Of a stretch of 64,000 nt of DNA, positions 1,743 through 31,725 are shown one piece after another; the first letter of the stretch is position 1; every line of letters begins with the position of its first letter. The notes below the pieces were generated by a model. That model did not search any database and was not told where the DNA came from. It saw only the letters and a list, made by a program, of their open reading frames with translations. The DNA comes from an uncultured Armatimonadetes bacterium (GTDB taxonomy: Bacteria; Armatimonadota; Armatimonadia; Armatimonadales; Armatimonadaceae): positions 15,203 to 79,202 of the forward strand of contig CAIVZM010000011.1 in assembly GCA_903910385.1 (NCBI GenBank), in the 5' to 3' direction. A program made the translations under genes and the position numbers.

Positions 1743-1771
1743 TTGACAAAAGCGAATTAGCCGTGTACTAT
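1743..1771 (+). promoter_or_regulatory. sigma70-like promoter TTGACA-17nt-TACTAT upstream of the LysM gene
   Basis: Perfect -35 TTGACA, a 17-nt spacer and a -10 TACTAT in the queG/LysM divergent intergenic region. Leaves about a 120-nt leader before the LysM start. Confidence 0.45.
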
Positions 1772-1894
1772 ACAAAAGAACTTTAAGTTTGCCCTACGCC
1801 TTCCTTTCCGGGAACGGCGCTTTTGTCGGAGTAGTACGGACAATAGCCGTGACCACTGGTGTGGCTCGGTTCGTGATTTCGGGAAAGGTAACGT

Positions 1895-2389
1895 GTGATG
1901 ACGGCAACGGTGACAAACCTGCAGACGACAGCGCAGACAGAAAAAATGATGAAGGCGGTTCAGCATCGGTATGCAGCGACGCGTTCGGTCCCTCGGGTGA
2001 ATCCGTTGAAACGACGTCGAAAGCGAACGCTCTATCAATGTATCGCTCCGTTTATCATCGCTATTCTCATCGGAGCGCTTGCTCTGGCGAGCGGCGTCGC
2101 TTTAGCGAGACGTGGCGAGATGCCTGCTCTTCCGGCTTCGGTTTCGATTACTGTACGGCAGGGCGACACCCTCTGGGGTCTGGCGAAATCCTTTGGCGAT
2201 TACTCTGCGCCGCTTCTAGACCGTGTGGACGCTCTCGCTGCCGCGAACGAAATGAACGCAAGCAATGGTCTTTACCCCGGTCAGCGCATTACGATTCCGA
2301 TCTCCGACACGGATACATTCAACCGCCTCAAGAACAGCGGGCGGCTTTCCGAGGTTGCGAGCGCTTCTACAGGCAGAGGTTCTTTGTAA
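1895..2389 (+). CDS. LysM domain membrane-anchored protein
   Basis: N-terminal TM helix (FIIAILIGALALASGVALA) followed by a LysM motif (VRQGDTLWGLAKSF...GLYPGQRITIP). GTG start. Confidence 0.7.
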   Translation: MMTATVTNLQTTAQTEKMMKAVQHRYAATRSVPRVNPLKRRRKRTLYQCIAPFIIAILIGALALASGVALARRGEMPALPASVSITVRQGDTLWGLAKSFGDYSAPLLDRVDALAAANEMNASNGLYPGQRITIPISDTDTFNRLKNSGRLSEVASASTGRGSL

Positions 2390-2402
2390 AGGAAGCATCG
2401 AT

Positions 2403-2771
2403 ATGTTCCAGGGTCTTCGTACAACGATCTATCATGTTCCCGATCTGCCGGCGGCAAAGGAATGGTACGCATCGCTTCTGGGCGTTCCGCCGTATTTCGA
2501 TGAGCCGTTTTACGTCGGCTTCAATGTCGGCGGCTTCGAGCTCGGGTTGGCGCCTTGCGAAACTTCCGATCCCGAAGGCGAGAGCGAAAGGACGCTTACC
2601 TACTGGGGCGTTCCGGACGCCGATACAGCATTAGATCGGCTCCTTACCTCTGGCGCGACGGTACGAGAACCCGTAACGGATGTCGGCGACGGAATAAAGG
2701 TAGCTTCTGTCATCAGTCCATCTGGTAATATTGTCGGTATCATCGAAAATCCGCACTTTGTCCTGCCGTAA
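2403..2771 (+). CDS. VOC/glyoxalase-bleomycin resistance family protein
   Basis: Start at internal ATG (MFQGLRTTIYHVPDL) with AAGGAAG 8 nt upstream. About 122 aa with a VOC-fold signature (HV.DL..A..WY...LG; GFELG). The longer track ORF overlaps the LysM gene. Confidence 0.65.
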   Translation: MFQGLRTTIYHVPDLPAAKEWYASLLGVPPYFDEPFYVGFNVGGFELGLAPCETSDPEGESERTLTYWGVPDADTALDRLLTSGATVREPVTDVGDGIKVASVISPSGNIVGIIENPHFVLP

Positions 2772-2912
2772 TTTTCGCGCAGAACCCGCTTTCGGCGCCA
2801 CTCCGAAATTCTACGTTAGCGATACCGATTCCGCCCTTAGAGCGGGAAATCACTTGCCCGTATAGCATTCCATCTCGGTGTAAAACAGAAGGGATTATGC
2901 TATACTGCCCCT

Positions 2913-5339
2913 ATGAAAATGTCTTTTCTCCCCCCTTCGGCTCGAAAAGTCGGGCTTTCCCTTGTTCTGGGGCTTTCTCTTTGTATAGGATTAACGAACG
3001 TCGTTCAGGCGCAAGAGGGCGGTAGCCCATTCCAGCCGCCGCGTGCAAAAATCACCTATGCGCCAGACCGGGATTATGACCTCAAGCATCTTAAGGTTAT
3101 TCTGAGCGTGGATTATGGCAAGCGCACCTTTTCCGGAACTTCCTATAATACGCTAAGCCCGATTCGACAGGTAGGACTTTCAAAAGTTCGGCTCAATGTA
3201 GGAAATGGCCTTGTAGTCAACAGCGTTCAGGTCGGGGACGTGACGGCATCCTTCACCAAGGAAGGCGACTTTTTGATAGTGACGCTACCGAAGACGGTGG
3301 CGCAAAATCAGGATGTAACTGTTGCGGTCTCCTACAGTGGCGGAAAGGCGCGCGGCGGCGGATTCGGCGATGGAGGAGGATTCCACTGGATCGAACCGAG
3401 AGCGGCGGGAGATATGGAGGATATCGCCCGCGTTGGTTTCTGGACACAGGGTGAAACCGGGTTCAACCGCGAATGGGCGCCAACCTGGGACTATCCTAAT
3501 GACTTCTGCACGACGGAAACGATTACGACCGTTCCCGCAGACTGGTCTGTTATCGGCAATGGCGTCAAGGTATCGGATAGAGTCAGCGCCGATAAAAAGA
3601 CCCGCACTGTCCACTGGGAAATGAAGCAGCCACATGCGACCTACCTTCTCTCCCTCTGCGCGGGGCCTTTCGACATGAAGACCGCAACATGGGAAGGCGT
3701 CCCTCTGCTTTATGTCGTGCCGAAGGGCAAGGGAGACATGATCGATGCCTCCTTCAGCGATACACCGGATATGCTCTCGTTCTTCTCGAAGGTATTCGGC
3801 GTCAAGTATGCCTGGCCCAAGTACGCACAGAACGCCATGTATGACTTTGGCGGCGGAATGGAAAACGTTTCCGCGACCACTCTGGGAGCGAACAGCCTGA
3901 CCGATGGACGTGACGGATACCGCACGATGGCGAGCCTGAACTCCCACGAACTCGGACATCAGTGGTTCGGTGACCTGGTGACCTGTAAGGACTGGGGAAC
4001 GATCTGGCTCAACGAATCCTTTGCAACGTTCTGCGAAACGACGTACATGGAGTATAGCCGGGGCAAGTACGCATACGATCGTGAGATCGAAGGAAATATG
4101 CAATCGTACTTCCGCGAAGCGCAACGGTACAAGCGACCCATCGTCACCAACCTCTATCCCAACCCGGATGCCATGTTCGATAGCCATACCTATCCCAAGG
4201 GTGGAGCGGTCTTACACACCCTGCGCCGCGCTCTGGGCGATGAATCGTTCTATCGAGGAATCAAGCTCTACCTGACACGCCACCGACACACGCCGGTGGA
4301 GACGCCAGACCTGATTCGCGCATTAACGGATGCATCCGGGGTCAATGTCCAGCCCATGTTCGACCAGTGGATTTACAAGCCCGGTCATCCCGTGCTGGAG
4401 TATGCCTGGTCTTACGATGAAAGCAAGGGCGAACTGACGGTCACCACGAAGCAGATGCAGGACACCAAAGACGGAACGCCTATCTATGATATCCCGACCA
4501 AAGTCGGCGTCATCTCGGGCGGAACGCTGACCGCGCTTCCCGTGCGCTTGAATGCGGTGGAAAATTCGTTCACGTTGAGAACCCCGAAGCCAGAAGCGGT
4601 CATCCTGGATCCGAACCATGACTTCCTGCGCGAAATGAAGCACACGTTCGCCGCATCGGAACTGGTGGCAATCGTGAAATCGGCTCCGAACGCTATCGAC
4701 AAACAATCCGCCCTGACAGCAATGCTAAAGGGAACCCCTTCGGATGCGGACATCAAGACCGCAGTCGCCGCTATTGAGGCGGATAAAGAACGATTCTCCG
4801 CCTTCGACAACATCAGCGCTCTGGGAGCGTTGAAGCGCGAAGATTTGCGCCCCTTCTTCCGTTCTCAGCTCAAGAGTACGGACGTTAACCGACAGGCGCA
4901 AGCGATGACGGCTCTGGGAAATCTACCCAAAACCGATGAGGACCTGAAATTCGCGCAGAGCGTTCTTGCCGATAAGAAGGCATCGTACCCGCTCATGGCG
5001 GCTTCGGTATCAGGGATGGCGAAATGGGACCCGACCGCAGGAGTTCCGGCGCTGATCGCCATGACGGGTAAGGAGAATCCAACCCGCGTCCGGCGTATGG
5101 CGCTGGAAGCAATCGGGCAGACTCCAGGCAAAGACCCCCGCCTGACAGAAGCGCTCCGCAACGTCATCAAGGGAAATAACTTCGGCATGACCATGAGCGC
5201 AGTCGAAGCGGCGAAAGCGCGAAAAGAGACGTTGCTGCTACCCGATATTCAGTCGCTTGCAAAGAACGTTCCGGCGGGATACCCAAGCTGGTTCGGCGGC
5301 TATCTGAAGGAAGCGGCGACTGCTATCGGAACGGAATAG
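2913..5339 (+). CDS. secreted M1-family zinc aminopeptidase (aminopeptidase N-like) with C-terminal HEAT-like repeats
   Basis: Signal peptide. HELGHQWFGDLVT zincin HEXXH motif plus downstream NESFA(T) glutamate motif, and GAMEN-like GGMEN. TATACT -10-like hexamer 6 nt upstream of the ATG (possible leaderless mRNA). Confidence 0.9.
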   Translation: MKMSFLPPSARKVGLSLVLGLSLCIGLTNVVQAQEGGSPFQPPRAKITYAPDRDYDLKHLKVILSVDYGKRTFSGTSYNTLSPIRQVGLSKVRLNVGNGLVVNSVQVGDVTASFTKEGDFLIVTLPKTVAQNQDVTVAVSYSGGKARGGGFGDGGGFHWIEPRAAGDMEDIARVGFWTQGETGFNREWAPTWDYPNDFCTTETITTVPADWSVIGNGVKVSDRVSADKKTRTVHWEMKQPHATYLLSLCAGPFDMKTATWEGVPLLYVVPKGKGDMIDASFSDTPDMLSFFSKVFGVKYAWPKYAQNAMYDFGGGMENVSATTLGANSLTDGRDGYRTMASLNSHELGHQWFGDLVTCKDWGTIWLNESFATFCETTYMEYSRGKYAYDREIEGNMQSYFREAQRYKRPIVTNLYPNPDAMFDSHTYPKGGAVLHTLRRALGDESFYRGIKLYLTRHRHTPVETPDLIRALTDASGVNVQPMFDQWIYKPGHPVLEYAWSYDESKGELTVTTKQMQDTKDGTPIYDIPTKVGVISGGTLTALPVRLNAVENSFTLRTPKPEAVILDPNHDFLREMKHTFAASELVAIVKSAPNAIDKQSALTAMLKGTPSDADIKTAVAAIEADKERFSAFDNISALGALKREDLRPFFRSQLKSTDVNRQAQAMTALGNLPKTDEDLKFAQSVLADKKASYPLMAASVSGMAKWDPTAGVPALIAMTGKENPTRVRRMALEAIGQTPGKDPRLTEALRNVIKGNNFGMTMSAVEAAKARKETLLLPDIQSLAKNVPAGYPSWFGGYLKEAATAIGTE

Positions 5340-5346
5340 GACGGTA

Positions 5347-6231
5347 ATGATGTCAAACGGAAAGCCCCGAGTCGGTTTCATCGGATTAGGCCTGATGGGT
5401 GCAGGAATGGCGCGAAATATCGCCCGCGCAGGCTTTCCGCTCACCGTCTATAATCGCACCCGCTTACGATCAGAGGAACTGGTTGCGGAATTCGGCGGCG
5501 TGACGGTGGCGGATTCGCCCCGCCATGCCGCCGAGTCGGCGGACGTGCTGGTTTCCATCGTTTCCGATGTTCCGGATGTGGAAGCCATTTATCTGGGAAC
5601 GGACGGCGTCATCGAAGCGGCGCATTCCGGTCTGACCTGTGTGGATATGGGCACGGTCGGGGCGGATTGCGCTTCCCGTGTTGCCGCCGCACTGGCGAAA
5701 AAGGGAGCGGAGTTTGTCGATGCGCCCGTCTCCGGTGGCGTCTGGGGCGCAAAGGAAGGGACGCTTTCCATTATGGCAGGCGGTTCGGACGCCGCCTATG
5801 CCGCTGCGCTTCCGGTATTCGAGGCGATGGGCAAAAAAATCGTCCATTGCGGCCCGGTCGGTTCCGGTCAGCAAACGAAACTGGTCAATCAAATCGTGGT
5901 CGCTCTGAATCTGGAGGCGGTCGCCGAAGGACTGCTTTTCGCGCAAAAAGCGGGATTGAATATCCAGACGACGCTGGATGCGGTCGGCGCGGGTGCGGCA
6001 AGTTCGTGGGCATGGAATACGCTGGGGCCGCGCATGGCGTCCGGCGATTACGAACCGGGGTTCAAAATCGCCCATCAGATCAAGGATTTACGCCTTGCGA
6101 TCGAGGCGGCGGAGAAAGCGGGAATCTCCCTTCGCGGCGCCCGGCTTGTTGTGGAGAACCTCCAGCGGGCGCAGGAAATACTGCCTGATGGCGGCGAACG
6201 GGGTACGCAGGGTATTATTGCCGCGCTCTAA
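5347..6231 (+). CDS. NAD(P)-dependent 3-hydroxyisobutyrate/2-hydroxy-3-oxopropionate reductase family dehydrogenase
   Basis: N-terminal Rossmann motif VGFIGLGLMGAGMARN, with whole-length similarity to the HIBADH/6PGDH-like family. Confidence 0.8.
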   Translation: MMSNGKPRVGFIGLGLMGAGMARNIARAGFPLTVYNRTRLRSEELVAEFGGVTVADSPRHAAESADVLVSIVSDVPDVEAIYLGTDGVIEAAHSGLTCVDMGTVGADCASRVAAALAKKGAEFVDAPVSGGVWGAKEGTLSIMAGGSDAAYAAALPVFEAMGKKIVHCGPVGSGQQTKLVNQIVVALNLEAVAEGLLFAQKAGLNIQTTLDAVGAGAASSWAWNTLGPRMASGDYEPGFKIAHQIKDLRLAIEAAEKAGISLRGARLVVENLQRAQEILPDGGERGTQGIIAAL

Positions 6232-6261
6232 GCTCTGATAGATATTCGTATCGTGGTCTCA

Positions 6262-6288
6262 GGGGGATGGCATGAAATGCCATCCCCC
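6262..6288. terminator. perfect 12-bp stem / 3-nt loop hairpin between convergent genes
   Basis: GGGGGATGGCAT-gaa-ATGCCATCCCCC between the HIBADH-like (+) and pat (-) 3' ends. The flanking U-tract is weak, so probably a bidirectional terminator or RNA stability hairpin. Confidence 0.55.
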
Positions 6289-6303
6289 GCGTTATTCCCA
6301 GAG

Positions 6304-9039
6304 TCAGAGTAGGATTTCCGCCGTCACCGTCGCCGGGTCGCCATGCGGGGCGCTGAGTGTGAAACCCAGTTTTTCACAGATGGTCTGCATCGTCTCATTG
6401 ATAGAAAGAATCTCGGCGAAGAGACGATTCACGCCCTCGGCGCGTGCAACTACGATCAAGCGTTCCAACAGTTCCGTTCCCAAACCCTGATTCTGGAATT
6501 CATCGCTGATCAACAGATTGAAAGTCGCTTCGGCATTATTGGCGGCAATTCCACCGCGTGTGCGGGATAATCGTGCGACCGCAATCAACCGATTATCCGG
6601 GGTGACGGCGACCAATGCGATCTCCCGGTCGTAGTCGTTATGACTGATCCGCTGAAGCCGTTCATGGGCGACCCGCTGGGAAAGCGCGAACGGATGGTAG
6701 TAACGCAGTTCGACGCTCCGCTCCGAAAGCATCTCATGGAAAGCGACAATGCGCGGTTCGTCGTCCGGGCGAATCGGGCGAATGGTGACGGTAACGCCGC
6801 TTCTGAGGGTCGCCGTTCCAATATACTGCGCGGGATATGGGCGAATCGCCGGTCTGGGCAATTGATCGGCGGGGATATCCTTGCTGTAAAGAACCACACG
6901 AGCGTCCAGCGCAAGCAAGGTGTCATGAGACGCCAGCACCGGATTGATATCGAGTTCCTTGATGACAGGTTGCTCCACGATCAGTTGCGAGAATCGAACG
7001 ACAAGGTTCTCCAGTGCTTCTTGATTGACAGGCGGACGGCCTCGCACTCCCTGTAACGCCACGTAGATTTTCGTTTGCTCCATCATTCGCCGCGCCAACG
7101 TTCGCGTCAACGGCGGCAGGGCAAGCGCAGAATCCTGGTACACTTCCACCAGTTGACCGCCGGTTCCGAACAGAATGATCGGTCCAAATTGCGGATCAGG
7201 ACTTGCCCCCAGAATCAATTCATAACAACCAGAAAGCTTCGCCATAGGTTGGACGGTGACGCCCAGAAAGTCCGTTGCGCTCGCCGCGCGCGTGACTCCC
7301 GTTCGGATACGCCGGAAGGCGTCCCGAACCGCCTCCTCATCCTTGAGATTCAGTTGCACCCCATCGACATCCGTCTTGTGGGTCACAGTCCCCGAGTGCA
7401 GTTTAAGAACGACCGGAAAACCTAATTGCGCGGCAACCGCGATCGCCTCCTCTTCGGTTGTCGCAATGTGGGTTTCGACGGTCAGGATTCCATAAAGCGA
7501 GAGAAGTTTCTTGGATTCATATTCCGTCAGCAGATCTCTACCGGACTGCCGGACATCATCCAGCAGTTTCCGTGCCGCTTCGGAATCGACTTCGCTGCCC
7601 TCTGTCGCAGCGGGAATTTCATACAGGGAACGCAGGTTATCGCTATACCGCCACAGGAAATTGAAAATCCGCGCCGCCTGATCCGGATAGGGAAAAGTAG
7701 GAATCCCAGCATCCATCAGAATCTTTTCCCCTGCAGCGACAGTCGCTCCGCCCATCCAGGAGGCGAGGACAGGTTTATTCAGCGATTGCGCATAGGGGCG
7801 CAGCGATTCGGCGATAATGGTCGGTTCCGTCATCGCTTGCGGGGTGAGAATTACCAGCAGTCCGTCCGTATTCTCATCCTGCGCGGCGATCTCCAGCGTT
7901 TTTGCGTAACGCTCCGGCGGGGCGTCGCCCAGAACGTCGATGGGGTTATTATGACTCCATGCGGCGGGCAAGAAACTATTGAGACCACTCATGGCATCGT
8001 CGCCGATTTCGGTGAGCGCTCCGCCGCCGCCGATGAGCGCATCGGTCGCCAGAACGCCGGGACCGCCCGCATTGGTGATGATAGTAAGGCGGTTTCCCTT
8101 TGGGCGAGGTTGCTTCGCCAGAGCTTCCGTCAGCGCGAAGATATCGGAGATGGTATCCGCTCGTAAAACGCCTACACGACTGAAAGCGACATCCAGCGCC
8201 GCATCGGAACCGGTCAATGATCCGGTATGGGACGCCGCCGCCTTGGCTCCCACGCTGGTGCGCCCCGCTTTAATGACAATAATCGGCTTTGTCAACGCCA
8301 CTTCACGAGCGGCGGACAGAAAGGCGCGAGCGTCGCCCACCGACTCCATATAGATGACGATGCTCTCCGTTTTAGGATCATTGCCCAAATAATCGATCCA
8401 ATCACCCCAACCTACATCCAGCATCGATCCCAGCGAGGCGAAGACGGAAAAACCGATCTGTTCCTGTTGTGCGTAATCCAGAACAGCAGTCAACAACGCG
8501 CCGGATTGAGAAAGGAATGCGACTTTTCCGGGACGCGCCATCCCCTGAGCGAAAGTGGCATTAATTCCGGAAAGCGGCGACATCACGCCCAGACAGTTGG
8601 GGCCGACAATACGCATCTTGCCCTCTCGCGCCTTTTCCAACGCCTGCCGTTCCAGTTCTGCGCCTTCCGGGCCAATTTCCTTGAACCCGGCGGAGATAAT
8701 AATCGCACCCTTTACCCCGGCGGCGACGCATTCCGCGATGATCCCCGGCGTCGTGGAGGCAGGCGTTACAATGACAGCGAGGTCGATCTGGTCTGGAACC
8801 TCACGAATGTTCGGGTACGCCTTGATTCCCAGAACGGCGGGGCGCTTCGGGTTGACCGGGTAAACGACGCCGCCAAAGGGAGACCCGATCAGGTTCGTGA
8901 CAATCGTTCGCCCGACGCTTCCCGGATTCTCCGTTGCGCCGATAACCGCAACCGAACGCGGCTTGATGAAGACATCCAGAGGATGCTCCCCTCCCTGGCG
9001 CAACAAATCATGCAAGGGATCCGTTATAACATCGGACAT
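6304..9039 (-). CDS. pat: protein lysine acetyltransferase Pat-type (NDP-forming acyl-CoA synthetase domains fused to C-terminal GNAT)
   Basis: 911 aa. N-terminal CoA-binding/succinyl-CoA-synthetase-like and ATP-grasp domains of ADP-forming acetyl-CoA synthetase. C-terminal GNAT (…[13 protein letters not shown]…). GAGGAG RBS 10 nt upstream of the ATG. Confidence 0.8.
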
Positions 9040-9169: not shown

Positions 9170-11227
9170 TTAGAGGGTTGGCACATTACGCTCCAGTTCC
9201 TGAAGCCACACGGTGGCGGAACTATCGGAAGGCGCGCGCCAGTCGCCACGCGGGGAAAGCGAACCACCGGAACCAACCTTGGGGGAGTTGGGGACGCACG
9301 AGCGCTTGAACTGCGAGGTCTGGAAGAATCGGAACAGGAAGACGCCGAGCCACTTTTTGATCGTCGGCAGATCATAAGCGACCCGCTTCTCCTGAGGAAC
9401 GGAATCCGGCCAGGCGCCCTGATCGGCATCCGACCAGGCATGGAACGCCAGATAAGCCACCTTCGAGGGGCGGAAACCGTACCGACTGATGTAGTACACG
9501 TTGAAATCCTGCAGGTTGTACGGTCCGATGGTCGCTTCGGTGCTTTGCGCGGGAGCGTCCTTATCGCCCTTATCGTGCGGGACAAGCTCCGGGGAGATTT
9601 CCGTTTCGACAATCGAAGTCAGATAGCCGCTGGTGCGTTCATTGAATTGCGTGGTTTCTACTGACCAGCGAATCAGATGCTGAATCAGAGTTTTCGGCAC
9701 TGAAGCGTTCACATTGTAGTGGCTCATATGGTCACCGACGCCGTAGGTGCACCAACCCAGCGCCAGTTCGGACAAATCTCCGGTTCCTAACACCAGAGCG
9801 TTCTGGAAATTGGCAAGCCGGAAAAGAATCGACGTTCGCTGTCCTGCCTGAACATTCTCAAAGGTGACATCATAAACAGGTTCGCCGTTATGGAAGGGGT
9901 GCCCGATATCGCGGAGCATTTGCAGACACGACGGTTTGATATCGATTTCCTGCGCGGTCACGCCGAGGGATTCCATCAGGCCGAGGGCATTCTTCAAGGT
10001 GCGGTCAGAGGTAGCGAAGCCGGGCATGGTGTACGCGAGAATATTTGTTCGCGGCAGTCCCAGTCTATCCATCGTTTTCGCGGCGACGATCAACGCCTGT
10101 GTAGAATCCAGACCGCCGGAAACGCCGATCACGAGACGGGAAATGCCGGAGGATTGCAGACGCTTCATCAGCCCATGTACCTGAATGTTATATGCCTCAT
10201 AGCACCGCTCATCGCGCTTTGCGGCATCCGCAGGGACAAAGGGAAAGCGGGCGACCGTACGATTCAGCAGGGTCTCAGCAGGAATCTCGAACGCGAAATC
10301 GATTGTCCGTATCGCTTTCAGACGTTCGCGGAAATCATGGCGAGCGTCCCCGAAGGAGGTCAAACGCATCCGCTCTTGCACCAGTTTTTCGACATCGATA
10401 TCGGCGAAGAGAATATCTTCCTCCGGCGAAAATCGCTCGGATTCGGCTAAAACGCCGCCATTCTCGCAGATGATCGCGTGCCCATCCCAGGCTAAATCTG
10501 TGGTGCTTTCCCCCGGTCCCGCCGCCGAATAAAGGTACGCCGCGACGCAACGCCCGGATTGCCCCATACACAGGTCGCGCCGATAATCCGCCTTGCCAAC
10601 CGTGATATTGGAGGCGGAAAGGTTGCAAAGAAGAGTAGCGCCCGCCATCGCGCCAAAGGTGGAAGGCGGCAACGGCGTCCACACATCTTCACAAATTTCG
10701 GCGAACAAAACGAAGTCAGGTAGTGTCTCCGCACGGAATACCAGATCGTCCCCGAACGGGATACGCTGTCCAAACAGGGTAATTTCGCGATCAATCGCCT
10801 CTCGCGCCGCCGCAAACTGACGCTTTTCGTAGAACTCCCGGTAGTTAGGCAGATACGACTTCGGCGTGATTCCCAGAATCCGCCCGCGATAGACAATCGC
10901 CGCCGTATTGAACAGCCGACCGGAAACGCGCAACGGCAGACCAACCAGCAAAACAGGCGTCAATGCTCGTGACGCTTCCACGATGGACTGTAATCCCTGC
11001 AATGTCGCTTCCAGGAGCGCATCCTGATGGAACAGGTCATCATTCGTGTAGGCAGAAATCCCCATCTCCGGAAACAATGCCACTGCCGCCCCGCCCTCGG
11101 ACGCCCGCTTCGCCAGACCGATCGTCTGTTCCGCATTGTACACAGGGTCTGCTACTCGTACCGTCGGGACGCATACCGCCGCCCGCACAAACCCGTGCGA
11201 ATACAGCGAAAAGAAGGATTCCGTCAT
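9170..11227 (-). CDS. nadE: glutamine-dependent NAD+ synthetase (nitrilase domain + NAD synthetase domain)
   Basis: N-terminal C-N hydrolase domain plus a C-terminal NAD synthetase P-loop (GVSGGLDS) and a conserved tail ([20 protein letters not shown]). Start set at MTESFF, 72 codons in from the track start. TATACT lies 6 nt upstream of the ATG. Confidence 0.85.
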
Positions 11228-11402
11228 GCCTTCAGTATACCGCTCAAATTCTTCCTGAAGGTTCTGGATAGGTATCCGAACCTGTGTTGGAAGTCGCTGC
11301 GAAGCATATGGACGCACCTCAGATTGGCAACATGTCCTTTCCGGGGGACAGAAATAGCATATCGCTCTGGCGCGAGTTCTCGCATCGGAGCCATCTCTTT
11401 GA

Positions 11403-24312: not shown

Positions 24313-25170
24313 TCAGAGACGGTAGATGAGCGCCGCATTGTCATGAAACAAGTTTCGTTTTTCGGCTTCCGACCAATCCGCTATGATCTCGTCCAGTATA
24401 CCTTTCCATTCGGTCAAGCTGGCGTACAGGGTGCAGACCGGCCAATCACTGCCAAATAGCAAGCGATCCTTCCCAAAAGCCTCTGCACAGTGACGGACAA
24501 TCGGTTCCAGCGTTTCGGCGGAAGGAATTCCGGTGGGCGAAGAACCGACGATACCGGACACTTTACAGTAGACGTTCGGACATTGCGCCAGGACAGCGAG
24601 CGCCATTTCCCATAAAGCGCGATCTTTGCTCTCCCGTCCGGGCGCGCCACAGTGATCGAGAATGAAGCGGGTATCCGGGCGCTGTCTCGCTAACATCGCC
24701 GCTTCCTGCAGTTCATCTCGTCCGACCAGCAAATCACAGCAAAGGTTCGCTTCCCCCAGATTCTTCGCTAGTTGCAGGAAAGGTTCATTCAGTAGAGGAG
24801 AGGTTCCCACCTGACGATGGATCGCAGGTCGAACGCCTTTCAATCCCGAATGCGAGGAAAACGTTGCGATAACGTCCCGGTAATCTTCGTGCAAGGGATC
24901 AATACTGATGACTGCGCCTGCGATAATCGCATCTTTCTGTTGCGCCTCCAGAATCCATTCCGATTCCTCGTAGCGATACTCCGCCGTGACTCCGGACTCG
25001 ACATAGATCGCCGCCTCAAGGGAAATGCCCCTCGTCGCCGCCTCATAGTCTTCGCGAGTGAAATCCCGCGCCAGCGCTCCGCTCAACCAAGGGCGGTCAA
25101 ACTGCGTCGTTGTCCAGAGATGAAAATGAGAATCAATAATATTAATATAATCAATAACAGATGATGTCAT
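24313..25170 (-). CDS. amidohydrolase-2 family metal-dependent hydrolase (TIM barrel)
   Basis: DSHFHLW near the N-terminus and LFGSDWP near the C-terminus (Amidohydro_2 signature). Confidence 0.65.
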   Translation of the reverse strand: MTSSVIDYINIIDSHFHLWTTTQFDRPWLSGALARDFTREDYEAATRGISLEAAIYVESGVTAEYRYEESEWILEAQQKDAIIAGAVISIDPLHEDYRDVIATFSSHSGLKGVRPAIHRQVGTSPLLNEPFLQLAKNLGEANLCCDLLVGRDELQEAAMLARQRPDTRFILDHCGAPGRESKDRALWEMALAVLAQCPNVYCKVSGIVGSSPTGIPSAETLEPIVRHCAEAFGKDRLLFGSDWPVCTLYASLTEWKGILDEIIADWSEAEKRNLFHDNAALIYRL

Positions 25171-25202
25171 GAGCGTTTTGGGTTATCTTCCACCTAATTG
25201 AT

Positions 25203-25232
25203 AGGCTGATCAATATTATCAGGCTGATCAAT
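25203..25232. repeat. direct repeat AGGCTGATCAAT x2 (6-nt spacer), each containing TGATCA palindrome
   Basis: In the AT-rich divergent region at the left edge of the low-GC island, upstream of the LuxR-like gene. Confidence 0.55.
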
Positions 25233-25323
25233 GTAGCATTATGTTATAATTAGCCATATACTGATATCAAAACTTTAATAACTGATTATACATATTAAAA
25301 TAAGTTGAGAGTGAGAAATAGAG

Positions 25324-25614
25324 ATGCCCGAAGTCAGTAGCGATTCCCAGGATGTTGATTGCCCGTTGCCCAATTACTTGTACCAGTTGCTCAAAGCGTC
25401 AGCAAGACTATGTAGCATGGATTCAAAATTGCTCGCCCAAAATTTGGGGCGAACGCGCAGTACAATTAATACTGAATTCAGAGAGATCGCCAAAAGGCTT
25501 GGTACACACAGCCGTTGCGAAGCAATTTTTGTCGCCCTCCGTTATGGCTGGGTTAAATTGCCTCCACCGGAAAAACCTTTTCTCCTGCATAGTGTGTACG
25601 AAAAGGAAGAATAA
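25324..25614 (+). CDS. small LuxR/GerE-type HTH protein (no receiver or ligand domain)
   Basis: 96 aa. C-terminal RTRSTINTEFREIAKRLGTHSRCEAIFVALRYGWV fits the LuxR_C HTH pattern (L.IS..TV..H..NI..KLGV.SR.EA...A...G). Confidence 0.5.
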   Translation: MPEVSSDSQDVDCPLPNYLYQLLKASARLCSMDSKLLAQNLGRTRSTINTEFREIAKRLGTHSRCEAIFVALRYGWVKLPPPEKPFLLHSVYEKEE

Positions 25615-25739
25615 AAGAAAACTCTGCACGACGGGCGCAGCGCCCAAAATTGGGTATTGTATTTTTGATCAGATCTGCATAAGATCATTTATCTCAGCGA
25701 AGGTCTGGAACCATCCACTTCGGGAAGCAGGAAATTGTA

Positions 25740-27029
25740 GTGTCAAGGCTGTTGATCATTCTGCCTACCTATAATGAATGTGAAAATTTGCCGCGTATAA
25801 CGAGCGCCCTGCTTAGGTTATTGCCGGAAGCGCATCTGCTGGTTGTGGATGACTCTTCGCCCGATGGTACAGGCAATATTGCTGACGAATTGGCGCGACA
25901 TGAGAATCGTCTTTATGTATTGCACCGTCCCCGCAAAGAGGGTTTAGGGCGCGCTTACATTTCTGGGTTTCAATGGGGATTGGCTCATGAGTATACCCAT
26001 TTCGCTCAGATGGATGTGGATGGCTCCCATCGCCCGCAAGACCTTCTTAACTTGCTCCCTATTCTGGACAAGGCGGATGTTGTTATTGGCTCCCGCTTCA
26101 TTCCAGGAGGACGAATTGAGCGCTGGCCTTTGTGGCGACATTTGCTCAGTTTGGCTGGCGGCTTGTACATCCGTACAATTTTGCATTTATCAATTGGTGA
26201 TGTGACAAGCGGGTTCAAATGTCTTCGACGGTCAGCGCTCGAAGGTTTACATTTATCGGAGATTGGCGCCGTCGGATATTGCTTTCAATGCGAGATGAAT
26301 TATCACTGGGCTTCCTTGAACCTACTCGTCGTAGAAGTTCCCATAGTGTTTATGCCTCGAGTTGCTGGTCGCTCGAAAATTTCTACCGCCGTTATTAGTG
26401 AGGCATTATGTTCTCCCTGGCGTTTACGTAGGCAATCGCCATTAAAAAGAACTACGTGGTGCAATACCCTAAATTGGGTATTGCCCCTTGTGTTGAATTC
26501 TATTATATTGCCATCAAAAAACTTGCTATGTTCAATGGTGAATCGAAAGACAATTATGTCACCACAACTCCAGAGTCGCTACTTTGGTCTTAGACATTTC
26601 AATCTTTATATCTCCCTGACACTTCTGTCAACGATTTTCTTGATCGCCGCCTTCGCGAAAATGCAACGGTTTAGCGAACTTCAGGCGACGATAGTTGCAT
26701 CGCGTCTTGTCCCGGATTTATTGACCTTAGCAGTCGCCCGATTAGTTATTGGCGCGGAGTTAGTAGTCGCTACGTTTATCTGGTTACCATCTTGGCGGGT
26801 GGCGACGCTATGCGTTCTTTCGCTGTTAGCAAGCGTTTTTGCGAGTTATTCCGCTTGGCGCGGACTGATGGGGATACAAGTCCCCTGTCACTGTTTTGGA
26901 ATTTTGTATAGCCTTGCTCCTTGGCAAGGTATAGCACTCAATCTGATATTACTGGTTGTCGTAGCGAATCTTTATACTTTGGGGCTTAATCCTACGAGGA
27001 ATTCTACACCCAACATATTCGTCAGATAA
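25740..27029 (+). CDS. polyprenol-phosphate mannose/glucose synthase (Dpm1/Ppm1-type GT2) fused to C-terminal 4-TM MauE/DoxX-like domain
   Basis: Residues 1-230 align motif-by-motif with DPM synthases (ILPTYNE.ENL; VVDDSSPDGTG; GSRFIPGG; VEVPI.F..R.AGRSK). Residues about 250-429 have four TM helices with PCHCFG, resembling the MauE CGCFG motif. A GtrA-like flippase domain is the alternative. Confidence 0.75.
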   Translation: MSRLLIILPTYNECENLPRITSALLRLLPEAHLLVVDDSSPDGTGNIADELARHENRLYVLHRPRKEGLGRAYISGFQWGLAHEYTHFAQMDVDGSHRPQDLLNLLPILDKADVVIGSRFIPGGRIERWPLWRHLLSLAGGLYIRTILHLSIGDVTSGFKCLRRSALEGLHLSEIGAVGYCFQCEMNYHWASLNLLVVEVPIVFMPRVAGRSKISTAVISEALCSPWRLRRQSPLKRTTWCNTLNWVLPLVLNSIILPSKNLLCSMVNRKTIMSPQLQSRYFGLRHFNLYISLTLLSTIFLIAAFAKMQRFSELQATIVASRLVPDLLTLAVARLVIGAELVVATFIWLPSWRVATLCVLSLLASVFASYSAWRGLMGIQVPCHCFGILYSLAPWQGIALNLILLVVVANLYTLGLNPTRNSTPNIFVR

Positions 27030-27182
27030 ATCTGACTTATACAGTGTCGTTTTCCTCAGAGGCAATATACGGTGGGAAGCCACAGCGAAACTTACTGATT
27101 CCTAACGACTGGCAACAAATTACCAATAATAGACGCATCGTTTTCTTTGTTAAAAGGACTGTAAATGTTAAGGAGGGTCGAA

Positions 27183-27620
27183 ATGTATCGTTCTCTTGCG
27201 ATCAGTTGCGTAATGGGGCTCTGTCTGTCACTATACGCCATAACTTCAACGGGCGCCGCGACAATACCACAGAGGTCGGGATTTATGTCACGCCCATTGA
27301 GTGCGGAGGAAATGAAGGATACAGGTGGGCGGGGCTACAGTTGCGATAAAACTATCTGTCAAGTCCCAGACGGGACATACCCATGCATACCTTGGTATGT
27401 CGGTGGCACTTGGCAATATAGCTATACAAACTCATATAATCCAGGTTTGACTTGTCGACAAAACAACCAAGATCCCAACTCTACCTGTGTACAGTTCTCT
27501 AAATGGTGTTCATGGACACAGTATTATCAAACGACTAACTGTACGGATATTCCCTACACTTCAACACACACCATGAATAACTTCTGTAGCGGAGGTAATG
27601 CAACGCATCCAACACCATAG
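27183..27620 (+). CDS. small secreted Cys-rich protein (8 Cys in mature region; Trp/Tyr/Thr/Asn-rich)
   Basis: ATG at 27183 with AAGGAGGG 5 nt upstream. Signal peptide MYRSLAISCVMGLCLSLYAITSTGAA. Mature part has 8 Cys, 3 N-x-T sequons, a GG site (LSAEEMKDTGG) and almost no charged residues. Confidence 0.65.
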   Translation: MYRSLAISCVMGLCLSLYAITSTGAATIPQRSGFMSRPLSAEEMKDTGGRGYSCDKTICQVPDGTYPCIPWYVGGTWQYSYTNSYNPGLTCRQNNQDPNSTCVQFSKWCSWTQYYQTTNCTDIPYTSTHTMNNFCSGGNATHPTP

Positions 27621-27708
27621 CTCAGTAATAAAAAAGGGAATATCGTCTTCTATACCCCCTGGCAGGGGGTCCATATCCTACCAAGGGGTAAGCCTACAAA
27701 TCAACAAA

Positions 27709-28773
27709 ATGAACATTACATATACAAAAAACCATTTGTCATGGACGATACTCGTCGTTTTCTTGATTGCTTTTCTGCCTGTTAGGGCAATATCTCAAAA
27801 TAGCGTACGCCCGTCTATCTCCGATATAATTCAGGCGCATCAACAAAGGCGTGAGATTTTGAATGCTGTCTTTACGTTTGAATATAATAATAGTTGGATT
27901 CTTCCTCTACCTGGGGGGAAAGAAACAGGGAATGCGGCGGAGGCAGTGTTAGGCGAATTTTATATTTTCCAATCTATACAGAATAATGTCGATCCTGCTA
28001 ATCAAATGCCTATCTTTGTGTACGATGGAACCCAAACGCATTTATTGAGTAATGTCTCTTTGAACACTTCTACTGGCAAGTTAGATGGCGGTCAAGGTCA
28101 GCAAAGAGATACGGCAGTTGACGGAAAGAAAAATTCTCTTTATGGGCCGGCTGAATTTGGTTTTAAGATAGAGGGCGATTGGATCTGCGACGTTTTGCAA
28201 CCTTCGTTTAAAATGGTTTCTATCTCCGATGACATAGGGAACGGAAAACTATACGAGTATTTGGGCCAATATCGGAACACTCCTTTACGATTGACTTTCG
28301 CTCCCAAATATAACTACGCCTGTATCAAAGCGGAGTGGAAATCCAGCGCCACCAGAACTATAATTTTTGAAGCGGCGAATTTTATTAATGATCACGGTCT
28401 TTGGTTCGCCCAAACGGGTAGCATGCGGACGATTGACACTCAAAAGAATGGCGTAAAGTTCACAGCGGGTCAATCTGTCATTTTCTCTGATTATCAGATC
28501 AATAACGCTCGTCTTACACTGGCTAACCAATTATCCGAGGCTACCTTTCAAGTGCGCTTGGCTAAAGGGAGTCAAGTGTTCGATCAAGACCGAAGAACTG
28601 TTTACAAAGTTGGGGAGAACAATGAGAAGTTCGAAGATAAAGAAATGGTGCGGCTGATGAAGCTGAACCGCCTGCCAATGGCGATAGGCTGGTTATTTAT
28701 AGGGAGTATGACCACACTGCTTCTCCTGGGACTGGCGGCTTTCATCCGATGGCGACGACGCGATTCTTCATAA
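27709..28773 (+). CDS. secreted protein with C-terminal TM anchor and basic tail (sorting-signal-like)
   Basis: Start at MNITYTKNHLSWTILVVFLIAFLPVRA (signal peptide). C-terminus …LNRLPMAIGWLFIGSMTTLLLLGLAAFIRWRRRDSS is a motif/TM/RWRRR arrangement like PEP-CTERM or LPXTG tails. The 3' end overlaps the C39 gene by 25 nt. Confidence 0.55.
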   Translation: MNITYTKNHLSWTILVVFLIAFLPVRAISQNSVRPSISDIIQAHQQRREILNAVFTFEYNNSWILPLPGGKETGNAAEAVLGEFYIFQSIQNNVDPANQMPIFVYDGTQTHLLSNVSLNTSTGKLDGGQGQQRDTAVDGKKNSLYGPAEFGFKIEGDWICDVLQPSFKMVSISDDIGNGKLYEYLGQYRNTPLRLTFAPKYNYACIKAEWKSSATRTIIFEAANFINDHGLWFAQTGSMRTIDTQKNGVKFTAGQSVIFSDYQINNARLTLANQLSEATFQVRLAKGSQVFDQDRRTVYKVGENNEKFEDKEMVRLMKLNRLPMAIGWLFIGSMTTLLLLGLAAFIRWRRRDSS

Positions 28774-29243
28774 TACTGATTTGCCTGAGCGTGGGATGCT
28801 GGCTTCCCTCCTTATATGAGCCACCTCATATTCTTGCCCAACAATCATGTGGCGAACGTAGCTTGTTTGCAGCCGCAACTTCGATAGGACTACAGATCAC
28901 GGAAAAACAGGTGCAAGAAGTCCTCCCGGCAGGCGTGGAATCGTCTACGTTTGCTGAATTGCAAATCGCTGCCTCTCGATTAAACCTTCAAGCCGAGGGG
29001 CGTCAGCTAACTACCACCGACATTCTGCGGGGTCATTATATTGGTGTGTTGCACGTTGACCAAAATCATTTCGTGGCCTTGATAGGGCATGATGAAGACT
29101 CCGTAGAAATCATTAACCCTGTCTACCGCAATTTACTTAAAAAAGAATGCTGGTTTGTCAATGACTTGGAAACACGTTGGGATGGACGAATACTCATTTT
29201 GCAACGTCAAACAAGGATGAATGGTAGCAATGAATTCAAATAA
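28749..29243 (+). CDS. standalone peptidase C39-like (bacteriocin-processing-type cysteine peptidase) domain protein with N-terminal signal/anchor
   Basis: QQSCGERSLFAAATSIG (Gln/Cys of the C39 catalytic site) and NHFVALIGHDEDSVEIINP (His/Asp block, compare ComA LHYYVVTGQDKDSIHIADP). Hydrophobic N-terminus. 5' end overlaps the upstream gene and 3' end overlaps the DUF2079 gene. Confidence 0.7.
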   Translation: MATTRFFIILICLSVGCWLPSLYEPPHILAQQSCGERSLFAAATSIGLQITEKQVQEVLPAGVESSTFAELQIAASRLNLQAEGRQLTTTDILRGHYIGVLHVDQNHFVALIGHDEDSVEIINPVYRNLLKKECWFVNDLETRWDGRILILQRQTRMNGSNEFK

Positions 29244-30888
29244 TCAAATTGCTCCTATAGACATTCGATTCATGGTAAGAATGTTCACTCCACGAATCCA
29301 CAATGTTGTTCTAATAACATTAGTCTTTGTTTACGTGATAATTTTCTCTTGTTTGACCTGTAGCTTATTTGATCGCCTTGGTTACATGAATTTTGATATG
29401 GGGATTTTCGATCAGGCTACATATTTGATCAGTCATGAGGAAGAACCTTTTGTCACATTGCGCGGAACGCACATCCTTGCCGATCATTTTAGTGTTATTC
29501 TTTATCTGCTGGCTCCACTTTATGTCCTATTTCCGAGTCCTAAAACCTTGCTGGTAGTCCAGACCGTCGCATTGGCATCAGGCGTTTTTCCCGTCTATTG
29601 GCTGGCGAAGGAGAAAACAGGGACACCTTTTGTTGCTCTAATATTCTCTGTGGCTTATCTTTGTCACCCAGCGTTGCAGTGGAGCAATACCTATGAATTT
29701 CATCCAGATACCTTGGCTACGCCCGCATTTTTATTTGCGCTCTACTATTTGAACCAAAAGCGCTGGATCGGCTATTTTTCTGCACTTCTATTTGCAGCAC
29801 TAACGAAGGAGAATGTTGGTCTCACAATTTTCTTTATCGGATTTTGCCTTTTCCCTCATCAACGCAACATGGGAGTCGCCACCTTGATTACAGGAGTCGC
29901 CACACTATGTATAGCGTTAATGACAATACGCTACTTTAATGGAGCCCCCTCACCTTATGTTTACCTTTATTCGCAATGGGGAGCAACGCCGTTTGCTGTC
30001 GTTACACACTTTGTCCTTAATCCGAAACTACTGTTAACACTTTTTTGGAACAATTATAGCTATTTTGTTTTTCTGTTGACGCCATTACTTTTCCTTCCGC
30101 TTTTCGCACCAGAAAAACTCTTACCCGCGCTACCAGCCATAGCGACGAACCTGCTTAGTAATAGATCAGGAATGCATAATATAGAGGAACAATACACCGC
30201 ACTCATAACGCCATTTTTTATCGTCGCCGCTATTGCCGGTTACGAACGTTTATCTTACTGGATTCATCATCTCGCTAAAGGATACGCCGACTTGATCTGC
30301 TACGGGGTTTTGATGAATCTGTTATTGTGGGCATGCGGCGGCACTTTGCTCTGGGGACCCTTCTCCCGCGACACGGAGAGTCTGTATTCCGTTTTCTCAA
30401 TCGAAGAAGCTCGTGAAATTCGGGAAACGCTTTCTGTAATCCCGCCAACTGTGTCGGTGTCTGCGCAAATGGGATTAGGATCGCAACTTTCCCAGCGGCG
30501 ATTCATCTATCACTTTCCTAATCCCTTTTCGAAAAATGTTTGGGGAGGCACAAAACAGGCGTTAATTGAAGTCGCATCTATCGAGGGAGCTACCTTGTCT
30601 GCCGATTATAACAGTAACATTGCGCGTACGCCTGTTGAGTATATTGCCTTAGTCCCGCTCTCCTCATGCTTCCCTTTTTCCTTCGAAAGATATATGCATA
30701 CCATCACTCTTTTACTCAAAAATCCCGCTTATGGCGTCATCACAGTGGGAAAAAACGCCATTGTTTTACGGCGCGGCGCAAACCATAAATCAGGTATCCA
30801 ATTGCTGGCGCGGCGGGGGGATATTGTCACAGACGATTCAGAACAGGCGCTTTGGGCATGGCTTACCCGATCTCATTCGCGACGGTGA
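29221..30888 (+). CDS. DUF2079-family polytopic membrane protein (GT-C-fold glycosyltransferase-like)
   Basis: More than 10 TM helices. N-terminal block MNFDMGIFDQATYLISHEE…HFSVILYLLAPLYVLFPSPKTLLVVQTVALASGVFPVYWLA matches the DUF2079 signature (DLGIFDQA…DHFSPIL…PSP.TLL.VQ). Confidence 0.65.
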   Translation: MVAMNSNNQIAPIDIRFMVRMFTPRIHNVVLITLVFVYVIIFSCLTCSLFDRLGYMNFDMGIFDQATYLISHEEEPFVTLRGTHILADHFSVILYLLAPLYVLFPSPKTLLVVQTVALASGVFPVYWLAKEKTGTPFVALIFSVAYLCHPALQWSNTYEFHPDTLATPAFLFALYYLNQKRWIGYFSALLFAALTKENVGLTIFFIGFCLFPHQRNMGVATLITGVATLCIALMTIRYFNGAPSPYVYLYSQWGATPFAVVTHFVLNPKLLLTLFWNNYSYFVFLLTPLLFLPLFAPEKLLPALPAIATNLLSNRSGMHNIEEQYTALITPFFIVAAIAGYERLSYWIHHLAKGYADLICYGVLMNLLLWACGGTLLWGPFSRDTESLYSVFSIEEAREIRETLSVIPPTVSVSAQMGLGSQLSQRRFIYHFPNPFSKNVWGGTKQALIEVASIEGATLSADYNSNIARTPVEYIALVPLSSCFPFSFERYMHTITLLLKNPAYGVITVGKNAIVLRRGANHKSGIQLLARRGDIVTDDSEQALWAWLTRSHSRR

Positions 30889-30906
30889 AAGAGTAAGAGA
30901 AATCTA

Positions 30907-31725
30907 ATGAAAAAAGTTCAGACTATTAAAAAGCGGTCAATACAGGGTTTTACTTTAATCGAACTGCTCGTTGTTATCGCCATTGTCGCGCTACTGGCGG
31001 CCATAATCTTTCCCGTTTTCTCTCGAGTGCGTGAGAACGGCAGATCAAGCGTTTGCATGTCAAATATGCGGCAACTGGGTTCCGCCGTAACGATGTATAT
31101 TCAAGATTACGATGAGACATACCCAATGAATCGTATTCCCGACGCTAAACATCCGTTACAGGTCTGCCAGGTTAGTGGAAAGACCCCCGGAATGGACGGC
31201 AGCAGTCTGAATTGGCGACGTGTTACATTTCCCTACGTCAAGAATCTGAAACTTTACGAGTGTCCCTCAAACGGGTATGCCTGGGTTGCACCGGCGCCAG
31301 GAATTCAGGGCGGCGATGAATCAAATGCAGAATGGCCCGCCTCGCAAGACCATTTTCCGCTATCCTATGCGTACAATGGCAGTTTTTTTCATGAGTCCGC
31401 CCCCTGCAACATAGGCGAAGCATTACAAAGACCACGGCGCGCTACCGAAATCCGTGATTCGTCGCGTCTGCTCCTACTTTTGGAAACGCGGATCTCGCCG
31501 CCTGACCTCGGAAGTTGGTCGCTTACATGGGTATATGGCAACGATAAATCACATGGCGTATTTCAGGTCCATAATGGCACAACTAACTTTGTCTTTGTGG
31601 ATGGTCATGTCGCCGGCAAAAAATTAGCTACGACTTGCGATAATAAATACTGGTCAGATGGCTATCCTGATCCCGATTCGACTTGTAACGACCTCCCGAC
31701 CGAATTATTCGACGAGTACCGCTAA
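30907..31725 (+). CDS. prepilin-type N-terminal cleavage/methylation domain protein with DUF1559 (pseudopilin-like), island copy
   Basis: [38 protein letters not shown] class III signal. C-terminal FVFVDGHVAGKK (DUF1559 motif). Paralog of 17296..18195. Confidence 0.75.
   Translation: MKKVQTIKKRSIQGFTLIELLVVIAIVALLAAIIFPVFSRVRENGRSSVCMSNMRQLGSAVTMYIQDYDETYPMNRIPDAKHPLQVCQVSGKTPGMDGSSLNWRRVTFPYVKNLKLYECPSNGYAWVAPAPGIQGGDESNAEWPASQDHFPLSYAYNGSFFHESAPCNIGEALQRPRRATEIRDSSRLLLLLETRISPPDLGSWSLTWVYGNDKSHGVFQVHNGTTNFVFVDGHVAGKKLATTCDNKYWSDGYPDPDSTCNDLPTELFDEYR

Follow-up and report, generated by a model that had tools for sequence, protein, structure and literature searches.

The window, by which we mean the whole 64,000-nucleotide stretch of contig CAIVZM010000011.1 from an uncultured Armatimonadetes bacterium, contains a gene for a 145-amino-acid-residue (145-aa) Cys-rich protein at positions 27183 to 27620. 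This gene, the target of the present analysis, was found to lie within a cassette whose gene order is conserved among diverged loci, and comparison of these loci suggests that its product is a secreted cargo protein matured by enzymes encoded around it. The cassette genes of the window and the predicted parts of the target are as follows.

25324-25614, + strand: small LuxR/GerE-type helix-turn-helix (HTH) protein, 96 aa, first cassette gene; weak Pfam GerE and HTH_38 matches
25740-27029, + strand: fusion of a GT2 glycosyltransferase (residues 6-168) with a membrane disulfide oxidase of the MauE type (residues 291-411); Pfam Glycos_transf_2 E 5e-23, MauE E 1e-16
27183-27620, + strand: target gene, an open reading frame (ORF) for a small Cys-rich pro-protein, 145 aa, stop codon included
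27183-27257, + strand: predicted Sec signal peptide, residues 1-25, signal peptidase I site near TGA/A (a slash marks a cut here and below), read from the sequence
27258-27332, + strand: predicted pro-peptide, residues 26-50, from alignments, a regular-expression (regex) scan and a helix at residues 41-46 in AlphaFold2 (AF2) models
27333-27617, + strand: predicted mature core, residues 51-145, with a GY start, 8 Cys and an NPG motif, beta-rich
27709-28773, + strand: cassette-specific protein P354, 354 aa; no Pfam or NCBIfam family
28749-29243, + strand: free-standing, signal-anchored C39 cysteine peptidase, 164 aa, overlapping both neighbours; Pfam Peptidase_C39 E 1e-7
29221-30888, + strand: DUF2079 polytopic membrane protein; Pfam DUF2079 E 2e-58, sub-threshold Mannosyl_trans4 and PMT_2
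30907-31725, + strand: prepilin-type (N_methyl) DUF1559 / H-X9-DG pseudopilin-like protein, last conserved cassette gene; Pfam and NCBIfam matches

The target gene, its family and the conserved cassette

Translation of the target is expected to begin at the ATG at 27183, 6 nt downstream of a Shine-Dalgarno sequence AAGGAGG; an alternative in-frame ATG at 27165 was disfavoured because the Shine-Dalgarno sequence points to 27183. Signal peptides were assigned by reading the sequence (n-region and hydrophobic stretch), not by a dedicated predictor. The target opens with MYR, continues with a hydrophobic stretch and reaches TGA/A, being uncharged to about I20, and its best hydrophobic 12-mer is residues 4-15 (SLAISCVMGLCL, mean Kyte-Doolittle value 2.23). 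This layout bears out the Sec signal peptide proposed in an earlier sequence-only reading, which had also counted correctly the Cys residues of the mature part (exactly 8: C54, C59, C68, C91, C104, C109, C120 and C135) and remarked on its few charges. The 95-aa core from G51 contains 43% S/T/Y/N, 16% aromatic residues, four D/E and three K/R. A lipoprotein was rejected because the target has no lipobox, and a DsbA-like partner of MauE because it has no CxxC and the C54-C59 spacing varies between 3 and 5 residues.

The protein had been placed outside known families, and this was upheld: none of the Pfam, NCBIfam or PADLOC models matched the target, and the family profile gave no match to PDB chains at E <= 10. 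No paralogue was found within the window, an Rfam scan of the window gave no match, and a promoter and terminator scan performed no better than on shuffled sequences. AF2 gave a predicted local distance difference test score (pLDDT) of 35 for the single sequence. Given a 10-sequence alignment, AF2 modelled a beta-rich core whose strands cover 69-85 and 109-115 (pLDDT 70-76), and a Foldseek search of the target model against PDB returned nothing below E 1. The ORF is a genuine gene whose small, secreted product probably has four disulfides and, judged by these comparisons, its family is a new disulfide-rich scaffold without detectable relatives.

A word-indexed (k-mer) search across 5.8 billion proteins recovered nothing beyond the target itself. 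Exhaustive phmmer searching of 1.84 billion cluster representatives gave four true homologues (P0002, P0003, P0004 and P0006; 126-148 aa, 27-38% identity, E 4e-10 to 2e-4), a fifth match being discarded as a low-complexity false hit. A profile search and inspection of the fetched loci added P0007-P0011 and the proteins of loci L010 and L017/L018. The relatives number about 10, show 22-38% identity and all come from Armatimonadota metagenome-assembled genomes (MAGs) or metagenomes. A signal peptide with a positive n-region and a hydrophobic stretch is present in 12/12 family members. The motif G-x-G-Y-x-C (G49, G51, Y52, C54) is invariant, as are seven Cys residues (C54, C59, C68, C91, C109, C120 and C135), and the eighth is invariant barring an alignment shift. 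An NPG-type motif is common to the family, P87 is nearly invariant, and the cores span 80-109 aa with 8-10 Cys. In the Chthonomonadales MAG DAIDHP010000003.1 (L012, 3825-4747) a frameshift splits the small gene and leaves the signal peptide in the other frame; P0007 and P0009 are the intact counterparts.

All three N-x-S/T sequons reported for the target (NST, NCT and NAT) are present, but their positions are not conserved: homologues carry 0-3 sequons each, and the partial exception is N-C-[TS]. The suggestion of an N-glycoprotein was therefore rejected, although a glycan-transfer enzyme is nonetheless constant in the operon. Family scans of the cassette proteins detected no STT3-family protein.

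The cassette runs in the order LuxR/GerE HTH protein (optional), MauE, small Cys protein, P354, C39, polytopic membrane protein and prepilin-type DUF1559 protein. Nine loci had sufficient flank for comparison (the window, L003, L004/L005, L009, L010, L012, L017/L018, L019/L020 and L021). P354 and C39 lie 3' of the small gene in all nine, and MauE lies 5' of it in 9/10 loci. The genes are co-directional and the last four in the window overlap or nearly abut, an arrangement expected of an operon. The C39 gene had been described as immediately downstream of the target, which is not so: the 354-aa ORF at 27709-28773 intervenes, and C39 starts at 28749. The small-gene family was never seen outside the cassette in the loci fetched. 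Since the genome matches were MAGs of Chthonomonadaceae, Fimbriimonadaceae and Chthonomonadales, the cassette belongs to the Armatimonadota. No cassette contains an ATP-binding cassette (ABC) transporter or peptidase-containing ABC transporter (PCAT), which is consistent with Sec export. Actinobacterial C39 matches in unrelated clusters (L013 and L014) and a CheA-like kinase (L022) were set aside, and a literature search on MauE together with C39 gave only irrelevant items.

Between an amidohydrolase gene on the 5' side and uvrB on the 3' side, the cassette (about 25000-31700) has 42-48% GC, compared with 52-57% in the flanks; this low-GC block fits an island or a compositionally distinct operon.

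The pro-region and the C39 peptidase

Between signal peptide and core, the target reads L39-S-A-E-E43-M44-K-D-T47-G48-G49-R50-G51-Y52. The string LSAEEMKDTGG picked out in the sequence-only reading was confirmed as LSAEEMKDTGGR, with L39-R50 at 27297-27332. If the chain is cut after R50, L39 stands at -12, E43 at -8, M44 at -7, T47 at -4, G49 at -2 and R50 at -1, so that the target shows the double-glycine leader consensus (hydrophobic residues at -12, -7 and -4, Gly at -2). In such leaders the residues at -7 and -12 sit in hydrophobic pockets of C39 (PMC12457901). The conserved glycines are G49 and G51, not G48, so the scissile bond would follow G49-R50 and not G48-G49. The earlier proposal of a double-glycine-like leader thus stood as to its canonical, conserved register, while its cut site moved one residue past GG: the leader matches the register with a predicted C39 cut at R50/G51. 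For orniglycocin, experiments have demonstrated C39 cleavage behind Gly-Lys, with Gly at +1 (PMC12457901).

The pattern L[ST]xxEMxx[TI]xG[RKA] followed by GY was found in five distinct members (the target, P0002, P0004, L017/L018 and P0008), and a sixth leader type in P0007/P0009 (LTKAEMNCSAGK, then GY) keeps the register with Ser at -4. In terms of individual sequences, 6-7 of the 12 members show the pattern. Background was taken from the six-frame ORFs of the window and of all fetched loci, and among these 225,136 residues the pattern had zero matches outside the target family. Position -1 is occupied by R in the window and L018, by K in P0004 and P0007/P0009, by A in P0002 and P0010, and by S, Q or G in the remaining members. 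In P0008 an 11-residue insert lies between ...TVGR and ...GTGYYC, indicating that the leader element and the core are separable. The leader of P0002 gave weak matches to two models of type-2 lantibiotic leaders, lichenicidin A2 (E 0.013) and Mersacidin (E 0.025), and a short helix at residues 41-46 of the target appeared in both AF2 runs.

The cassette C39 proteins are free-standing, 153-179 aa long, and carry an N-terminal hydrophobic anchor. An Arg precedes this anchor, from which the positive-inside rule predicts a periplasmic catalytic domain. Neither C34 (GCGxxSL) nor H107 (NHFVAL) varies among four aligned cassette C39s, and the product of 28749-29243 has the Cys and His of Peptidase C39 in its CG...L and NHFV motifs. 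Among solved structures, LahT150 (6mpz, 'Double Glycine Motif Protease domain') is nearest, with the Cys and His motifs aligned, and PCAT1 comes second.

An analogous cassette was found in the Planctomycetota (L015, positions 1-6785 of the Thermoguttaceae MAG sequence JANLFZ010000205.1). Its genes encode, in this order, a CxxC thioredoxin (Trx)-like protein, C39, DUF1573, a Cys-rich protein of 166 aa, a P354-like protein (hhalign E 3e-5 with the P354 profile), a GT-C protein of the PIG-V type and a DUF1559 pilin, the last in a methyltransferase/DUF1559 pilin ORF. A hydrophobic signal sequence opens the Cys-rich protein and leads into LGDEALTTMLGG/VNPSWC. LGDEALTTMLGG is a textbook GG leader, hydrophobic at -12, -7 and -4. 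No homology to the target family was detectable (hhalign probability 0.2%), which suggests that the cargo of such cassettes is interchangeable. This pairing, in a second lineage, of signal peptide, GG leader and Cys-rich core with a free-standing C39 and a disulfide catalyst is the strongest indirect support for the proposed processing of the target.

Neighbouring genes and strain variation

The MauE domain of the window carries the motif PCHCFG at about 26886-26894, placing a CXC in the periplasmic loop between transmembrane (TM) helices 3 and 4. The CXC motif is present in 7/8 complete cassette MauEs (the window and six others). This motif in the TM3-TM4 loop is the experimentally defined active site of MauE, which replaces DsbB: it complements an E. 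coli dsbB mutant, and the CXC is essential (bioRxiv 10.64898/2026.03.05.709764). The authors of this 2026 preprint make the case for MauE as a general oxidase that is mostly independent of mau genes. MauE bears an N-terminal GT2 fusion in the window and in L004; among NCBIfam models the window GT2 comes closest, though weakly, to polyprenol-phosphate sugar synthases, and it matched no model of the SunS type. The HTH protein, first in the cassette, has homologues of 38% identity in the same place in L003, L004 and L018.

P354 has a signal peptide and a highly diverged periplasmic domain of ~300 aa, and it ends in a strongly conserved TM helix with a KWRRR tail, resembling a sorting signal. Its homologues (325-380 aa) lie directly 3' of the small gene in all loci, and the gene is duplicated in L010 (2423-3652 and 4814-5959) and L021 (3933-4997 and 4967-5992). 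The database call for the window starts at ATG 27598 (391 aa); alignment of homologues favours 27709. A profile search with P354 returned only two proteins, and profile comparisons gave only the sub-threshold matches SO2946-like_C and VPDSG-CTERM.

The polytopic protein 3' of C39 is DUF2079 in most loci, including the window, and is probably a GT-C-type glycan transferase. L012 has two tandem DUF2079 genes. The same position is filled by Wzy_C (O-antigen ligase / O-oligosaccharyltransferase family) in L021 (6462-7685) and L011 (527-2155), by an unclassified 608-aa polytopic protein (6446-8272) with a separate GT2 (8250-9026) in L018, and by a PIG-V-type mannosyltransferase in L015. Such swaps of family at a fixed position suggest that glycan transfer belongs to the system. 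We found no paper on DUF2079.

The pseudopilin-like protein is the best-conserved cassette member, with homologues of 41-57% identity in the same place in L009, L010, L011, L018 and L019; L021 has no pilin gene on the 3' side. Fixed genomic partners for a DUF1559 pseudopilin-like gene are a rare case within this massively expanded group. Directly 3' of the L018 cassette, an ORF at 9984-11249 ends in a CxxC...CxxC/DRDxNAAxNI-type motif and resembles an IS605-family TnpB-like protein.

Two contigs (L001 and L002) are 100% identical to the window over the target gene. Deletion alleles are known from metagenome assemblies, on three contigs from strains about 98-99% identical, as follows.

26705-27471, deleted in L016: MauE C-terminus with CXC and the first two-thirds of the small gene lost; junction ATC + C (ATCGCG vs ATCCCA)
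29200-30870, deleted in L016: DUF2079 lost; junction CTCATT
26865-27296, deleted in L023 and L024: MauE cut just before CXC, small gene left without its start codon and signal peptide; junction TTG

The junctions have 3-6 bp of microhomology. There are two independent alleles which each inactivate MauE and the small gene together, and this indicates that the pair is dispensable in some settings and perhaps counter-selected. Such loss is typical of bacteriocin or exposed-surface loci. The target family has diverged to 22-38% identity, compared with 39-48% for DUF2079 and 41-57% for the pilin-like protein; such fast divergence, together with low GC and strain-level deletions, would fit cargo of antagonism or surface interaction.

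Proposed maturation, alternatives and known systems

At a probability of about 0.55, we consider the target to be the cargo of an operon restricted to the Armatimonadota: a Sec-exported, disulfide-bonded, C39-trimmed and possibly glycosylated protein of bacteriocin-like or surface-factor-like function. Comparison of the loci establishes the gene, its conservation, its synteny, the leader register and the C39 and MauE motifs, and from these we infer each biochemical step. The 145-aa precursor would be exported through Sec by its N-terminal signal peptide. In the periplasm its eight Cys would be oxidised to four disulfides through the MauE of the operon, a quinone-linked DsbB-like oxidase, as the conserved adjacency of the two genes and the published activity of MauE suggest. 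The helix of the 25-residue pro-peptide would be recognised by the membrane-anchored periplasmic C39 and cut at R50/G51, a step to which the register, the co-occurrence and the G-K/G precedent point. The product would be a disulfide-locked beta-rich domain of ~95 aa with a GYSC start and a high content of Ser, Thr, Tyr, Asn and aromatic residues. DUF2079 might O-glycosylate it with a lipid-linked sugar supplied by GT2, the pilin-like protein being an alternative acceptor. The mature protein could then act outside the cell, speculatively either in bacteriocin-like antagonism or by binding carbohydrates or surfaces (as a lectin- or adhesin-like factor), and an equally speculative role of P354 or the pseudopilin-like protein would be in transit across the outer membrane. 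As regards the earlier proposal that the target is a substrate of the neighbouring MauE/C39 machinery, the nine-locus synteny, the leader register, the relation of C39 to a double-glycine protease and the CXC of MauE speak for it, while its details of adjacency, cut site and sequons were corrected.

A number of observations weigh against this reading. C39 enzymes do not typically act on chains with Arg or Lys at -1, and the target lacks three features of double-glycine substrates, namely a leader at the N-terminus, export free of Sec and a C39-bearing ABC exporter. No characterised precedent for a Sec signal and a double-glycine leader in tandem was found in the literature. P0003, P0006, L010 and P0010/P0011 (4-5/12 members) have shortened pro-regions without the LSxxEM helix or a clear -7/-12 pattern, retaining G-x-G-Y only, so that the invariant glycines could be structural and not a cleavage site. 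The third triad residue of the window C39 is Asn (N123), which is Asp in several homologues, and the oxyanion-hole Gln at Cys-6 is not conserved in the cassette C39s. Concerning oxidation, L021 carries DUF1573 in place of MauE, the L012 MauE reads PRPANGFG without a CXC, and no thioredoxin-fold partner for MauE was found in the Armatimonadota cassettes. GT2 occurs in only three cassettes, one family member has no sequon at all, and the glycan transferase might act on the neighbouring pilin-like protein and not on the target. The alignment-based AF2 model reached a pLDDT of only 56 and a predicted template modelling score (pTM) of 0.36.

The most serious alternative, which we nevertheless hold to be unlikely, takes the small protein for a structural or accessory partner, periplasmic or on the surface, of the DUF1559 protein and P354, and not for a processed cargo. 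G-x-G-Y-x-C would then be the start of a domain, C39 and the glycan transferase would act on the pilin-like protein or P354, and MauE would only provide disulfides. The high conservation and kept position of the pilin-like gene fit such an arrangement, as does the filling of the position after C39 by Wzy_C (L021 and L011) or GT-C-like enzymes. In Pseudomonas, enzymes of these classes encoded beside pilA, TfpO/PilO (Wzy_C family) and TfpW (GT-C), glycosylate the neighbouring pilins. P354, with its conserved TM helix and basic, sorting-signal-like tail, has a gene that overlaps C39, and the absence of the leader helix in 4-5 members would also be understandable. However, the -12/-7/-4/-2 register is kept in most members and is separable from the core in P0008, and the non-homologous cargo of the equivalent L015 cassette bears a textbook GG leader. 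Moreover, prepilins are processed by prepilin peptidase and not by C39, and the L021 cassette lacks a downstream pilin gene.

That the adjacency is meaningless, the target being an ordinary secreted protein in an envelope glycosylation or pilin locus with a leader motif arisen by chance, is disfavoured and seems improbable. Short motifs can arise randomly, and the functions of all neighbours are deduced from family membership only; yet the same order recurs in nine independent, highly diverged loci from at least three Armatimonadota lineages, the leader motif is absent from the background, the family keeps to the cassette, and the parallel cassette of the Planctomycetota holds a different cargo.

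Least probable is a cofactor-bearing or redox subunit of a periplasmic enzyme like the methylamine dehydrogenase light chain MauA: the protein is small, periplasmic, Cys- and Trp-rich and encoded next to MauE, which is historically linked to maturation of the methylamine dehydrogenase small subunit, but such a quinoprotein subunit was rejected on homology (the family profile matches no PDB chain at E <= 10, hence not MauA), on tryptophan (W108 varies among homologues) and on mau neighbours (mauE-like is the only such gene, with no mauB, mauG, mauD or large-subunit gene in any cassette), and the preprint cited above treats MauE as a general oxidase.

Beyond the cargo reading preferred here, a broader proposal is possible, though we regard it as doubtful: a fully extracytoplasmic and so far undescribed route of diderm Armatimonadota and Planctomycetota for ribosomally made proteins might combine a Sec signal and GG leader in tandem, oxidation by MauE or a Trx-like protein, glycosylation by GT-C or Wzy_C from lipid-linked sugars, trimming by a free-standing, membrane-anchored C39 and hand-over by the tail-anchored P354 and the pseudopilin-like protein across the outer membrane, with interchangeable, protein-sized cargo, a 'glycocin-like' system of the periplasm.

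If the cargo reading is true, double-glycine recognition by C39 is not tied to ABC export and can also work in the periplasm on Sec-exported, protein-sized substrates, and the target would be the first dedicated natural MauE client outside methylamine dehydrogenase. It would also give a first functional context for DUF2079, for the ~350-aa P354 family and for one of the DUF1559 pseudopilin-like proteins, which are hugely expanded in Planctomycetota, Verrucomicrobiota and Armatimonadota. That sister strains have repeatedly lost the gene points to an ecologically contested role, such as antagonism or a surface factor exposed to phages or predators, in freshwater members of the Armatimonadota, a phylum with very few cultured members.

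Among known systems, that of MauE/MauD and MauA is similar in that MauE, with its conserved CXC, is encoded beside a small disulfide-dense periplasmic protein. In contrast, the target has no sequence relation to MauA, the cassette has no MauD-like thioredoxin, MauG or MauB, and MauE is fused to GT2 in the window and L004.

Periplasmic glycosylation that depends on polyprenol-phosphate sugars is performed by actinobacterial Ppm1/Pmt and, on pilins, by TfpO/PilO (Wzy_C) and TfpW (GT-C). In the cassette, too, a GT2 and a polytopic GT-C-like or Wzy_C enzyme are encoded next to a pilin-like protein and a Ser/Thr-rich protein exported by Sec; unlike those enzymes, its DUF2079 protein is an uncharacterised, putative glycan transferase.

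Class II bacteriocins, microcins and peptide pheromones, with LSxxELxxIxGG leaders and PCATs, share with the target the leader register (hydrophobic at -12, -7 and -4, Gly at -2) and a cognate C39 with Cys and His whose nearest solved relative is LahT150. They differ in that the target leader is not at the extreme N-terminus, Sec replaces export by PCAT, the target family has Arg, Lys or Ala at -1, and the target is predicted to yield a folded, four-disulfide protein of ~95 aa.

Glycocin clusters encode a precursor, a GT2, a C39-PCAT and BdbA/BdbB-type oxidoreductases (PMC12457901); those compared here were sublancin (SunA/SunS/SunT/BdbA-BdbB), glycocin F, thermoglycocin and orniglycocin. What they have in common with the cassette is a small precursor that contains Cys and bears a double-glycine-type leader, a cluster-encoded C39, a GT2-family glycosyltransferase and a dedicated thiol-disulfide oxidoreductase, MauE taking a BdbB/DsbB-like role, and the G-K/G cut of orniglycocin matches the G-[RK]/G of the target family (PMC12457901). 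Unlike glycocins, the target has a Sec signal before the leader and no ABC/PCAT exporter, and its C39 is free-standing, signal-anchored and periplasmic. Glycocin cores are helix-loop-helix structures of ~40 aa with 2-3 disulfides, whereas those of the target family have 80-109 aa, 8-10 Cys and a predicted beta-rich fold. GT2 is present in only three of the cassette loci and weakly resembles polyprenol-phosphate sugar synthases, not SunS; P354, the polytopic glycan transferase and the pseudopilin-like protein have no glycocin counterpart, and the cassette host is a diderm of the Armatimonadota.

The closest logic would thus be that of glycocin clusters, and also that of class II bacteriocin and microcin maturation, with the target a member of neither because of its Sec signal before the leader, the lack of an ABC exporter and its protein-sized, beta-rich core with four predicted disulfides. 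Taken together, the comparison suggests a Sec-dependent, fully periplasmic counterpart of glycocin and class II bacteriocin maturation, a route undescribed so far.

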